Shown: positions 445 to 13,080, counted from the first letter of the stretch. The stretch is DNA of 64,000 bases from Callorhinchus milii (GCF_018977255.1 NW_024704742.1:5954001-6018000), one strand, 5' to 3'. A program made the numbers and translations. Notes: generated by a model not told the origin, from the sequence alone.

Positions 445-518
445 ATCTAGGAATGGATGATGAAGGCGATGATGATCCGGTACCATTACCAAATGTAAAT
501 GCTGCAATCCTAAAAAAG
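445..518 (+). CDS. skp1: SKP1 internal coding exon (74 bp); the start-codon exon lies upstream of the window
   Basis: tcag|AT CTA GGA ATG...AAA AAG|gtac translates (D)[24 protein letters not shown], matching vertebrate SKP1; canonical AG/GT. Confidence 0.98.
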
Positions 519-688
519 GTACGTTTGCAAAGCTAAAGCAGGCCTGTCAAATTGGAATTTCTTGTGCTCCACCAAAGCAATTATTTGACAGGTGATCTGG
601 TAGCTTCTTGGTAATATAGTAGAGTAATATCGTTCAGCCGCAGTACGAAATTGACTATGAATTAATCTTAACTTTTTTTTTGCTTTAG

Positions 689-832
689 GTGATCCAGTGG
701 TGCACACATCACAGAGATGATCCTCCTCCACCAGAAGATGATGAAAACAAAGAGAAGAGAACCGATGATATACCTGTGTGGGATCAAGAGTTTCTCAAGG
801 TGGACCAGGGTACTCTCTTTGAACTAATTCTG
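689..832 (+). CDS. skp1: SKP1 coding exon (144 bp)
   Basis: ttag|GTG...CTG|gtta gives [48 protein letters not shown] (R where human has K66). Confidence 0.98.
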
Positions 833-2073
833 GTTAGTATTCATTTCAATCCTTTGCATTCTTAAGGTTGCATGACCTTCAGTAGATCTTTTGTTTTTTG
901 GCTAATTTGAGTTATTGACATTTATCATTTTGAAAGCTGGCCCTGACAATTTTTGATTGACGGTTAAATTATGGCGTCATCATTGAAGACTTTTACCAAC
1001 AAATTACATTTTTGCTGTTTGTTGATATCATCTACATGGTGACCGAAAAGTAATGATGCCATTACAATGTCTAATATTACGGTCTTAAAGAAATGATCAT
1101 ATGTATTTTTTGGATAATAGGGTAGTTGAAAAATAAAACTTTTTGGCCATCCTGTATAATTGTTATAATTGGTCCTGGTGCCCTATCTGAATAGAGTTCC
1201 TGCTCCTGGCTTCGATCTAGAAATCATTGCAAGACAATTGCATGCTCGTTGGTGGTGTTAGGTGAGAACAGAATGTCTGTCAATGTCAAATAGTTTACTA
1301 ATTCCCTCTGTTGAGACTTTAATGCATTCATAAGCCTGTAAGAAAATTGCAGGCCTTGATTTTTATTGTGGAAACCTCAACCTTTTATAGTTACCCAACT
1401 TTTAATAACTTCAGTGAATATGCGCTCATATTGAACCATTCACCTGTACATCAACCTATCCTACACTCTCATTGGACTACCTGCTTGTCAGTAGAGTTTG
1501 CAAGTTGGACCATTTATCTGTGCTAAGAGCTTCCTGGGTATAGCTATAAAACAAGATAAATTATTGTTTCTTCTCCTTTTTCTCTCTCTCCCCCCTACCC
1601 CACCCCCCCCCCCATTCAAAAAGTGAATTAACCACATGTATCTGAATGTTGTGGTAATTTAGACCTCAAAACAAACTGTGCCTTAAAAAGTCCTAGGTGA
1701 TGCAACGCTGGAATTCTAACGTTGTGTCTACCACGGTTTAGTATGCTATTGTAGTTTATCACCACAATATAGATTGGAATCAGAGGTGCTGAGGGAAAGA
1801 CGTATGTTCTTACTGTTGTGTGGAACTTGAACTGGATAATATTTGAGCTTGTTTTCAAGTTGTACACATTTTATTGGAGAACCAAAAAAGTTTTTATATT
1901 TTAGTTAATCGTTCACGCTATTTAATTTTGCATATAAAATCTACAGTCAATTCACTTCACATTATATCCTGTGAAGCGCTTTGAAATGTCTCAAAGACAC
2001 GATAAGGCGCCATATCAAATGCCAAGATTATTATTATTAATTCACTTTCAATGATTTCCTCCTTTTTAAATAG

Positions 2074-2214
2074 GCAGCAAACTACTTGGATATAAAGGGT
2101 TTGTTAGATGTAACTTGCAAAACCGTGGCGAATATGATTAAAGGAAAGACTCCTGAAGAAATTCGCAAAACTTTCAACATAAAAAATGACTTCACTGAGG
2201 AAGAGGAAGCACAG
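2074..2214 (+). CDS. skp1: SKP1 coding exon (141 bp)
   Basis: atag|GCA GCA AAC...GCA CAG|gtac gives [47 protein letters not shown]; overlaps ORF 2086-2340. Confidence 0.98.
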
Positions 2215-2977
2215 GTACTGGATGATTATTTTTTGAATGGTCAGCTGTTCATTTGGAAAATTTATTTCAAAGTGCAGATTTGCTTCTTGAAATGTGCATT
2301 TTTAATTTGCAATCTCGGCATCTATTATTGCAATGGGTAAAAATCAAGAGTAGATATTAGTATTCATTTTTGTTTTGTCTTCCTCCCCCCCCCCTCCCCC
2401 CTCTCACTCACCAAATGTGCATTGTCTGTACGCAAATGATTTGGCAGAGTTTCAGTCCAGATAGAAAGCAGTTGTAAGTGTCCAAAATTTGCAAAAGTCT
2501 TATACAGACATAGATTTGAAGTATGGCTCATCAATATTCACTTGAAAACAAGCACTTGTAGAGCAATAGCTTTGATTTAGGACAACTTATATCAATATTA
2601 ACGTCTCCAAGTGCTTATAGGGATAGCAGGACAGACATATTCCATAGTGCTTGATTTGCTGATGATGGAACAGAGTGTGCAGTAGGCCTGAATTAGTGGA
2701 GATGGTGGGGTTGGTGATTTCAGAACTGGGATGAAAGTAAGAAAGGATTTGAAATCAGGACAAAGATCTTGAGACAAAGATCTCCTGATGAACAAAGAAC
2801 CAATGAAGCTTGGTGAGGATGGGAATTGGTATCACTTCTACATGAGCTGGAGCTTGTTTGAAGAGGGAACTGGGGACCTGGTGAGGACAATGTTTAAGAA
2901 ATTAAGAAATCAGGTCTAGGGATGATGAAAGTAATTCCACTTTATGTTGATTACAATTTTTTGAATCCTTTCCTCAG

Positions 2978-3013
2978 GTACGCAAGGAAAATCAGTGGTG
3001 TGAAGAGAAGTAG
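2978..3013 (+). CDS. skp1: SKP1 last coding exon
   Basis: cctcag|GTA CGC AAG GAA AAT CAG TGG TGT GAA GAG AAG TAG = VRKENQWCEEK*. Confidence 0.98.
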   Translation, partial: VRKENQWCEEK

Positions 3014-3327
3014 TCCAGTATGAATTGCTTGTGCAGCCTGAAGGAAGAGTGCTTGCATGTATTAAAACGCTAGTGGGCTGATGTAACTTTAAAATGTAGG
3101 CAAGATCACCACCACACAAACATCTGTAACTAGCATTAATGGTGAGCTTTAAGCTTGCTCCATGGAACTTATTCGCTAGTTGAACAACTGCTGTGTAGTG
3201 TCTTATTACTTCGTATTACTTCTCCTGACTTCTTCCAACATTGTCAATTGAATACAAGTTGTATAAAAACAAATTGACCGTATGAAGGCAAATGTGATTG
3301 AAATTCCTTTAGTATTTTTAATTTGTG

Positions 3328-10935: not shown

Positions 10936-11024
10936 CTTTACAATAAAGGGATAAAAGGGTTACTGCGCTGTCCAAAAAAAAAACACAAACTGCTTTTAAA
11001 AAAAGAAACATTTGCAAGGCTTAC

Positions 11025-11089
11025 AGTCTTTTCTTGTTGGAGGCTGTGTTGTAGGACAACCTACGACGGTACGTCAGGCGCTGAACCAT
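11025..11089 (-). CDS. rpl34: RPL34 exon 2 coding part (ATG at 11089; exon begins at 11098)
   Basis: tttcag|ACATAAAAG ATG GTT CAG...AGA CT|gtaagc = MVQRLTYRRRLSYNTASNKKR(L); 65+100+104+85 = 354 nt = 117 aa plus stop. Confidence 0.98.
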
Positions 11090-11429
11090 CTTTTATGTCT
11101 GAAATGAAACAAGACATATTCAATGTATAAAACCAATGCGGTTTTGTATCACACAAATTTTATCCTGAGTTAACCCACCACACAATTGCCTAGAGAACAC
11201 CATAGTAAAATCGTCTCTAATGCAACTTAGAGAATTTATAGAACAGAAGAAGAGTTAAGAATAGTTCAGCTAATAGTTACCCGCTGAAAGAGCTACAACA
11301 GCATGACAAGTTATAGTACAGAAAAGAAAACTGTTTCGTCAAAAAAAAATCTGGGGAGTTGTGTTACTCTATATCCCGTTCAGGCATTCCTGTTCTCCAC
11401 ATAATTGTGATCACTTCTATGGTTATATT

Positions 11430-11735
11430 ATGCTGTTGTCTGACTACGTTGTGAGCTCATATTCCAGATCTACGCTCAACTGCAGTGCTGCATTATCTGA
11501 GGTACCATCCATGGCAAGGACGCGTTACACCGAGGTCCCATCTACCCGTCAAGCTGGATGTGAAAAGATCCTACGGCACAAATCGAAGAGACAGGAGTTC
11601 CTCCTAGTATTCCTGGCTCAGATAAATTGGTCACTCACTCCATTGGCTGTTTGCCGGTCGCTGCTGTGTGTAAACTGGCGAGCGGGTTCCCCTAAAATGC
11701 AGTCACTACACTTCACAGTGCAATACAAAATGACA
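11430..11735 (+). mobile_element. Old Deu-type (SacSINE1-like) SINE remnant
   Basis: Similar to 50005-50405 and 38850-39355. Confidence 0.55.
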
Positions 11736-12140
11736 TTTGTACAGCGCCTTTCACGCCAAGAGGACGCCCCAAGGCCCTGGACAGTCGGGGACTTGGACTC
11801 GAGCTGGGGGTTGGAATCAGGGAGCGTGGGGGGTGTAGGGGTAGGAGGGCGGCCGAAGGCATGCTCGGAGGGGAGGATCTTGAGACGGGCCTCGAAGGAG
11901 GTGGCGGCGGGGGGGGAGGGGGAGCGAGGCGAAGGGAACGTGGGATGGAAATGTCCCAAAGAGCGGGGACAGGGAGACTGAAGGCCTGACCTGCCGACGG
12001 TTGGGAGGACCGAGCCGGGGCCGAGCGGGAGGGGGGGGTTGATATACGGGGTTAGCAGGTCTGTGGGGTAAGGAAGGAGCAAAGGCCACGGAGGGGCTTT
12101 GAAGGCGAAGACGAGGAACTTGGGACTGTACCCACTGTGT
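11735..12140 (-). mobile_element. L2 LINE 3' end in rpl34 intron 1
   Basis: Reverse complement aligns with the L2 tail at 34070-34480. Confidence 0.7.
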
Positions 12141-12276
12141 GACTGGGGGGGTGGGGAGGAGAGAGGGGGGGGGGGAGGGGGGAGGTTTGCCCGGTGGGGG
12201 GGAAATACAGATCTCCGGGATCACCCCCTCACTGCCTCCCCCAACCCCCATATATACAAAACAAGCAACGAGAGGC

Positions 12277-12689
12277 GGGGGGGGGGGGGGGGGGGCAGTG
12301 AGGCCCTCACACAGGCCCTGTGGGGGGGTCAGTGAGGCCCTCACACAGGTCCTGGGGGGGGGGGGGGGGGCAGTGAGGCCCTCACACAGGCCCTGTGGGG
12401 GGGGGGGGGGGGGGGGGCAGTGAGGCCCTCACACAGGCCCTGTGGGGGGGGGCAGTGAGGCCCTCACACAGCGCTGTGTGGGGGGGGGGGCAGTGAGGCC
12501 CTCACACAGGCCTGTGGGGGGGGGGGGGGGGGGGGGCAGTGAGGCCCTCACACAGGCCCTGTGGGGGGGGGGGGGGGGGGCAGTGAGGCCCTCACACAGG
12601 CCCTGTGGGGGGGGGGGGGGCAGTGAGGCCCTCACACAGGCCCTGTGGGGGGGGGCAGTGAGGCCCTCACACAGGCCCTGTGGGGGGGG
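12277..12689. repeat. Minisatellite of 10 units, (G)n-CAGTGAGGCCCTCACACAGGCCCTGT
   Basis: Tandem units directly visible, G runs of about 7-21 nt. Confidence 0.95.
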
Positions 12690-13080
12690 CCCGGGGACTG
12701 GCGCCGCTCTGCCCTCGATCCCGACCGGAGACACCGCGCAATACACCCGCCCCGTCAGCCATCGGGACCCGGTCGAGCCGCCCCCGGGGGCAGCGCGGGC
12801 CCAGCGGTCGGTGTGGGGCGCGGATGGAGGCGGATTGGGAGGAAGGGGTTGTGTTTTTTTTCACACAGACACCGACTGCGCTCTCCCACCGGCGCCATAC
12901 CTGCTCGCCGACGTCACCGGAAAGGGAGAGGGAAGGAGGCGGGGCGTGGGGGGGGGGGAGCGCGAGGCCAAAGGTCAATGCGCGTCACCGGAAGCCTCGC
13001 CTCTCGACGCGCTGAGACCACTCCCCCCGTCCCCAGAGGGCGCGGCCATCTTGTTGTACGGCAGAGCTGCGGAGGTCACA
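12690..13080. promoter_or_regulatory. CpG island / rpl34 promoter
   Basis: CpG-rich; GC boxes 12936-12949, ETS/GABP CCGGAAG 12988-12994, YY1 GCCATCTT 13045-13052, typical of ribosomal protein promoters. Confidence 0.85.
12901..12930 (-). other. rpl34: rpl34 non-coding exon 1 with TCT initiator and 5'TOP tract
   Basis: Minus strand CTTCCCTCTCCCTTTCCGGTGACGTCGGCGAGCAG|gtatgg: pyrimidine start and strong donor; exact TSS uncertain. Confidence 0.85.

Follow-up and report, generated by a model that had tools for sequence, protein, structure and literature searches.

A second, intron-bearing skp1 gene next to rpl34 and lef1 in Callorhinchus milii, the elephant shark

All SCF ubiquitin ligases rely on SKP1 as their invariant adaptor, and vertebrates are, to our knowledge, regarded as having one copy of its gene. 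At human 5q31.1, the gene order listed in PMC8654160 is VDAC1, TCF7, SKP1, PPP2CA and CDKL3. The gene of ribosomal protein eL34 has other neighbors in mammals, with an interval of cattle BTA6 listed as COL25A1, ETNPPL, OSTC, RPL34, LEF1, HADH and CYP2U1 (PMC8299338). Here, we describe a stretch of 64,000 nucleotides from the elephant shark, Callorhinchus milii (the window), in which an skp1 gene and rpl34 stand tail-to-tail. The window corresponds to positions 5,954,001-6,018,000 of NW_024704742.1 (hereafter C1), a sequence of 139.2 Mb in an assembly of 991.5 Mb (GCF_018977255.1); positions without a prefix are counted from its first base. Genes were read from the sequence and spliced by coordinates, and family searches were carried out with Pfam profiles over the whole genome.

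The elephant shark genome contains two skp1 genes, one in the window, on the side of lef1, and another on a different chromosome-scale sequence, C13, in a block that resembles human 5q31.1. An earlier note on the window had correctly recognized an intact, intron-containing rpl34 lying tail-to-tail with skp1 at a distance of about 4.3 kb. The two genes, skp1 on the plus strand and rpl34 on the minus strand, converge with 4,295 bp between their stop codons, and the ends given for the pair are real, position 445 being a genuine skp1 exon start and position 12930 the start of a pyrimidine tract at rpl34. The rare ribosomal-protein ohnolog (a duplicate retained from a whole-genome duplication) that the same note had proposed is the wrong way round, since it is skp1 that has the additional copy.

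The two skp1 genes and their chromosomal blocks

The Skp1 profile (PF01466) has two matches among nine scored candidates genome-wide, C1:5956095-5956223 and C13:3004440-3004562. The gene on C1 lies on the plus strand and starts outside the window, with a non-coding first exon (approximately C1:5,951,166-5,951,345) inside a CpG island and a first coding exon (C1:5,952,603-5,952,699, located by tblastx and splicing) 1.3 kb left of the window. Its second coding exon (445..518) has an AG acceptor, a GT donor and a frame that runs on into the neighboring exons. The third (689..832) carries the derived residue R66 and has the same boundaries as its counterpart on C13; the fourth (2074..2214) encodes the Skp1 dimerization domain and accounts for the genome match on C1, and the last (2978..3013) includes the stop codon. 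Single exons match Skp1 (E 6.8e-26, the fourth coding exon) and Skp1_POZ (E 5.1e-12), while the full-length product matches PF03931 (E 4e-28) and PF01466 (E 6.8e-31), which is the domain architecture of SKP1.

The exact 163-residue product of this gene is present in the databases as C. milii S-phase kinase-associated protein 1 (NP_001279160.1, XP_042190040.1, AFK11135.1 and AFM89640.1), and NCBI places it on a sequence of 139,202,109 bases, equal to C1. UniRef entry V9KKR5 and a second entry consist of the same protein preceded by a translated, in-frame leader from the 5' untranslated region (UTR). The longer leader (P0163) maps unbroken to C1:5,951,166-5,951,348 with 93% identity, and a splice donor marks the end of this alignment; the leader of V9KKR5 maps within the same interval in two pieces, with identities of 86-90%. 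Since the leader maps to an upstream exon that ends at a splice donor, these records come from spliced transcripts of the window gene. The gene is transcribed, given that the accession series of its records are, as we take them to be, derived from cDNA.

Both skp1 coding sequences (CDS) have 492 nt, and the positions of their four coding introns are identical. They differ at 79 of 492 nt (84% identity), with 69 of the differences at third positions, and at the protein level 4 of 163 residues are different (positions 3, 25, 66 and 71). Nonsynonymous divergence (dN) is 0.017-0.024 and synonymous divergence (dS) is 1.0-2.3, depending on the method; both copies are under strong purifying selection. 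At fourfold degenerate sites, the skp1 pair differs at 32 of 52 positions, similar to the accepted ohnolog pair of lef1 and the TCF gene on C13 (39 of 68 in five aligned exons), with both pairs near saturation. Judged by these sites, the skp1 duplication falls into the same near-saturated age class as the lef1/TCF pair. Similarity outside the exons is confined to short interspersed elements (SINEs), which also dominate a tblastx comparison of the C1 and C13 flanks, where skp1 coding exon 1 is the only coding sequence to surface. A retrogene origin of the second skp1 was considered and rejected, as all four coding introns are common to both copies.

The skp1 gene on C13 (C13:3,000,025-3,005,320, plus strand) is preceded by exons of a protein phosphatase 2A catalytic subunit (PP2A-C; C13:2,986,052-2,988,915, plus strand), whose best PDB match is PP2A-C alpha (E 1.7e-45), with calcineurin as the next family (E 1.5e-25). 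On its other side lies a TCF gene on the minus strand, which extends from C13:3,118,647 to 3,022,029 or beyond, followed by a VDAC gene (C13:3,204,885-3,206,454, plus strand) that is slightly nearer to VDAC1 (E 3e-25 to 2e-24) than to VDAC2 (E 4e-23 to 9e-20). A Sec24-type gene is found at C13:2.77 Mb, and rpl34 is absent from the block. The block agrees with human 5q31.1 in gene order and, presumably, in relative orientations. Mis-fused gene models that join PP2A and Skp1 (PPP2CA+SKP1) in alligator, two birds, deer and a teleost reveal the same adjacency in bony vertebrates.

The surroundings of the window gene are of a different kind. The profile of the TCF/LEF N-terminal domain (PF08347) has 11 matches among 12 candidates, which define four loci, on C7, C13, C1 and C1175. 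As far as its exons are detected, the C1 locus (C1:6,186,252-6,194,157, plus strand) begins 168 kb right of the window end. It is lef1: an exon is 100% identical to two C. milii lymphoid enhancer-binding factor 1 entries, all named proteins among the 120 best matches of this exon are LEF1, and six exons are placed with the LEF1 protein at C1:6,186,255-6,204,330 on the plus strand. The plus-strand lef1 is therefore head-to-head with rpl34. About 75 kb past lef1, a 3HCDH gene (C1:6,279,333-6,280,415, minus strand) is closer to HADH (E 6e-19) than to the trifunctional enzyme HADHA (E 1.8e-8). Two Sec24-type genes (14.5 and 25.1 Mb) are also found on C1, in addition to a REST-like gene left of skp1. 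REST, SEC24B and SEC24D are presumably all on human chromosome 4, and the REST-like and Sec24-type genes fit a chromosome-4-like C1. Thus, the window belongs to the LEF1 paralogon, the counterpart of human chromosome 4q, and rpl34 occupies its canonical, conserved place. The profile of L34e (PF01199) has two matches among seven scored candidates, both of them in the window, and rpl34 is a single-copy gene in the elephant shark genome.

Distribution and origin of the second skp1

Fifteen SKP1 sequences were aligned; the database shows cluster representatives only, so absence elsewhere cannot be claimed from it. V25 and K66 are found in 13 of the 15, including amphioxus, two hemichordates, a brittle star and hagfish, while I25 and R66 are found in two, the window copy and a protein of the ray Mobula hypostoma annotated as 'SKP1-like' (XP_062902873.1). 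Across stored SKP1-type sequences (176 with at least one of the two motifs readable, 92 with both), I25 and R66 occur together in three, two C. milii entries and the Mobula protein. The latter, which has six further private changes, is on a sequence of 205,008,019 bases, and this is also the length recorded for the sequence with Mobula LEF1 isoform X2 (XP_062902876.1). The accessions are close as well, ending in 873 for the SKP1-like protein and in 875 and 876 for LEF1, two and three apart. These observations suggest that both Mobula genes are in one neighborhood, in which rpl34 could be number 874. The proteins annotated as 'SKP1-like' in Amblyraja and Narcine are probably products of a different gene. 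Narrow literature searches did not turn up any paper that deals with a second cartilaginous-fish skp1. None of SKP1, RPL34, LEF1 and TCF7 appears in the searchable parts of the supplement to the chromosome-scale elephant shark genome (PMC8302630), where gene identifiers are probably used instead.

The explanation that we favor, with a probability of roughly 0.72 as a whole, is that the window skp1 is an ancient lef1-side copy, related to the C13 gene through the two rounds of vertebrate whole-genome duplication (2R). One skp1 would have been located near a single TCF/LEF gene before these duplications. Subsequently, the tcf7-side skp1 would have been retained by all jawed vertebrates, and the lef1-side skp1 would have been kept at least in the chimaera and a manta-type ray and lost in the lineage to mammals, with rpl34 surviving on the lef1 side only. 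Each skp1 has a TCF/LEF gene in its neighborhood, at a distance of about 229 kb from lef1 on C1 and about 17 kb from the TCF gene on C13. C1 has chromosome-4-type genes and C13 has 5q31-type genes, and the skp1 pair therefore lies on recognized paralogous blocks.

Three other explanations have to be weighed. The earlier note regarded the window as part of the TCF7 paralogon, with rpl34 as an alternative ohnolog or as one of two retained copies. As human SKP1 adjoins TCF7 in the order listed in PMC8654160, the window does have a TCF7-side look if one skp1 is assumed. This reading is almost certainly wrong. A check of the flanking genes separates the two sides: lef1 and hadh are near the window, as in mammals, whereas tcf7, ppp2ca and vdac1 are in the complete PP2A-C/skp1/TCF/VDAC block on C13 and none of them is near the window, which does not qualify as a TCF7 paralogon. 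With one L34e locus in the genome, there is no second rpl34 copy either. The note had also named a mirror alternative, an skp1 copy retained beside lef1, and this matches the data, with the other skp1 in the TCF7-type block. Its ancestral block of TCF/LEF, skp1 and rpl34 gains support for the first two members, and rpl34 may also have belonged to it. The concerns that it raised against its own proposal, a lack of any nearby TCF/LEF gene and an assembly misjoin, do not apply: lef1 is close by, and a misjoin cannot explain a second, distinct and transcribed skp1. A misjoin at approximately 3.5-7 kb that placed an skp1 gene beside rpl34 is very improbable on several further grounds, even though no contig of four sequencing runs spans the SINE (4504-4805) or either of the repeats located approximately at 3969-4105 and 5586-5840. 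Contigs of three studies of the same organism match 3020-7300 with few differences, tiling every unique part and agreeing with all unique sequence on either side; the fourth run, from another organism, matched repeats only. The left flank of the window gene is REST-like and not PP2A-C, NCBI places the product on a sequence of the size of C1, and in Mobula the SKP1-like gene appears to be linked to LEF1. A misjoin could at most relocate the window skp1; no such error can give rise to another skp1 that is 84% identical to the C13 gene in CDS and has a sequence, a promoter exon and mRNA-derived records of its own.

An ancient small-scale (segmental) duplicate, which landed by chance between the REST-like gene and rpl34 before the chimaera-ray split, is unlikely but has to be taken seriously, and a number of observations weigh against the 2R origin, some of them in its favor. 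No sequence character dates the split to 2R; near-saturated fourfold sites indicate 'very old' and not '2R', and a duplication on the cartilaginous-fish stem, or another pre-chondrichthyan small-scale event, is compatible with the sequences. In the immediate neighborhood, skp1 alone is duplicated, and no PP2A-C exon was found among 135 open reading frames (ORFs) scanned over 20 kb to the left of the C1 gene, where the matches belong to the REST-like zinc-finger gene. The two blocks disagree in how skp1 is oriented toward the TCF/LEF gene. The C13 skp1 converges on tcf7, while the C1 skp1 is on the same strand as lef1 with rpl34 between them; therefore, one inversion or more has to be invoked. 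The label tcf7 of the TCF gene on C13 is itself given by synteny. In PDB, which lacks a TCF7 N-terminus, the closest match of its first exon is TCF7L2 (74 bits), to which the first exon of the C7 gene is closer (81 bits). The protein has changed too little for a gene tree, and there is no derived residue that the C13 gene has in common with SKP1 of bony vertebrates: I25 and R66 group the window copy with Mobula, but with four differing residues nothing polarizes the canonical copies. The Mobula adjacency is deduced from equal sequence size and near-consecutive accessions instead of coordinates, and the SKP1-like proteins of Amblyraja and Narcine have V25 and K66 and are on contigs that differ in length from those of LEF1 in the same species. 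The absence of a lef1-side skp1 from bony vertebrates is drawn from two mammalian gene lists and cluster representatives.

On the other hand, a duplicate that lands at random would come to lie no more than 250 kb from one of the three remaining TCF/LEF loci with a chance that we estimate at about 0.15% (approximately 1.5 of 991.5 Mb), and ohnolog origin is preferred for this reason. Two further points do not fit with a chance landing: the synonymous divergence of the skp1 pair equals that of the lef1/TCF pair, and the genes that accompany the two copies are of the chromosome-4 type on C1 (REST-like, HADH and two Sec24-type genes) and of the 5q31 type on C13. On balance, an ohnolog origin is the probable one of these two.

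rpl34 and other features of the region

The rpl34 gene is on the minus strand and has five exons. The non-coding exon 1 (12901..12930, donor GT at 12900) starts within a pyrimidine tract, a putative 5' terminal oligopyrimidine (5'TOP) start. The tract itself covers 12939-12919 on the minus strand, just before the exon 1 donor, and reads CTCTCCCTTTCC from position 12930, which fits a start of the 5'TOP type as far as sequence can tell. Exon 2 (11025..11098) contains the ATG at 11089, with the CDS extending from 11089 to 11025. Coding exons 3 (10836..10935) and 4 (8439..8542) match PF01199 with E-values of 1.9e-7 and 8e-13, respectively, and represent the two matches of the genome search. The last exon (7262..7393) contains the remaining CDS (7393-7309) with the stop codon at 7311-7309 and an AATAAA at 7280-7275, and the 3' end is estimated at approximately 7262. 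The CDS of 354 nt (117 codons and the stop) has an uninterrupted frame, and every intron is GT..AG.

GC content is 0.60 in 12001-14000, around exon 1. Intron 1 of rpl34 contains a tandem array (12278-12689), in which a G-run and a unit of 34/35 bp are repeated about 10 times; alternatively, the array can be described with a period of 119 and 3.4 copies. A (TCAA)n-type microsatellite of 232 bp (13087-13318) is located just upstream of exon 1. The spacer between the two stop codons (3014..7308) consists of the skp1 3' UTR, intergenic DNA and the rpl34 3' UTR, and includes a tRNA-derived SINE (approximately 4504-4805) among other repeats. Rfam has a tRNA-like match at 4735-4797 within this spacer. 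Over the whole window, Rfam yields 14 tRNA-like matches and nothing else, all of them SINE heads. The head at 9981-10052 (minus strand), in intron 3 of rpl34, is named tRNA-Ala(TGC) by ARAGORN (9982-10051), and there are 13 further sites in the window. This SINE is very abundant, the copy at 4504-4805 reaching summed contig depths of hundreds of thousands to millions.

Beyond rpl34, the window looks like a gene desert. In 13,000-64,000, none of the 150 longest non-repeat ORFs (at least 57 residues, among 275 of at least 45 residues) matches Pfam at E 0.001. OSTC, which adjoins RPL34 in the cattle interval, was searched for genome-wide with PF04756; the 8 matches among 18 candidates fall into two unrelated loci only, at C1:54.1 Mb and on C15, and short ostc exons may escape a profile search.

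Left of skp1, C1:5,934,002-5,944,680 contains, on the minus strand and head-to-head with skp1, a C2H2 zinc-finger gene whose REST-type finger is recognized by PF24540 (E 2.2e-17). A CpG island at C1:5,950,000-5,951,500 lies between the two genes, which may share a bidirectional promoter. Farther left, paladin-like exons (PTPlike_phytase, best E 2.7e-9) were found on the minus strand at C1:5,905,305-5,917,729 when the 100 longest of 170 ORFs were scanned. As C1 is otherwise similar to human chromosome 4 and PALD1 is presumably at human 10q22, the paladin-like gene may be a further paralog that cartilaginous fishes retained.

The family search missed the beta-catenin-binding first exon of lef1, whose 5' end is detected only to 6,186,252; the database model has a different N-terminus. 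The fourth TCF/LEF locus consists of two exons about 300 bases apart (1362-1920) on C1175, a small unplaced contig of 19,957 bases, and may represent tcf7l1 in an unassembled region.

Function and comparison with known systems

The additional skp1, with four differing residues, most probably does the usual work of an SCF adaptor, and the two copies could divide expression between them. More speculatively, both copies could have stayed functional in cartilaginous fishes from the early duplications onward, with the lef1-side skp1 acquiring a partly separate role, for example an expression domain of its own or a preference for certain F-box proteins or cullins. This copy would be marked by fixed I25 and R66 and by faster change in Mobula. 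We consider such a role quite unlikely. If it existed, the pair would be a natural experiment on the dosage and partitioning of a core subunit of SCF for which bony vertebrates have one gene, and the linkage of skp1 and TCF/LEF would be fixed as a feature of the pre-duplication vertebrate genome.

The second skp1 is presumably more than 400 million years old. With the 2R origin favored above, it would represent a clean case of differential ohnolog retention in cartilaginous fishes, by an intron-bearing and strongly constrained gene, and would support linkage of skp1 and TCF/LEF in the ancestral block. The advance is a modest one, as the gene is already annotated and the general picture is unchanged by a second skp1. 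The gene can serve as a marker for paralogon reconstruction. It also calls for caution in assigning orthology, since NCBI's C. milii SKP1 is the lef1-side copy.

Compared with the mammalian RPL34-LEF1 neighborhood as listed in PMC8299338, the elephant shark region has the same single-copy rpl34 divergent from lef1, with hadh beyond lef1. It differs downstream of rpl34, where skp1 and then the REST-like gene are found in the elephant shark, whereas the mammalian lists have OSTC in this place. The window gene shares with canonical vertebrate SKP1 of human 5q31.1 the Skp1_POZ and Skp1 domains, the length of 163 residues and an exon structure like that of the C13 copy, and its product is 98-99% identical to bony-vertebrate SKP1 proteins. 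However, it lies beside rpl34 and lef1 instead of ppp2ca and tcf7, has I25 and R66, and is a second locus. Additional SKP1-related loci named 'SKP1-like' are also found in mammals, in the form of retrocopies and pseudogenes. Unlike these, the elephant shark copy has all its introns and a dN/dS of about 0.01-0.02, and is located in a paralogous block.

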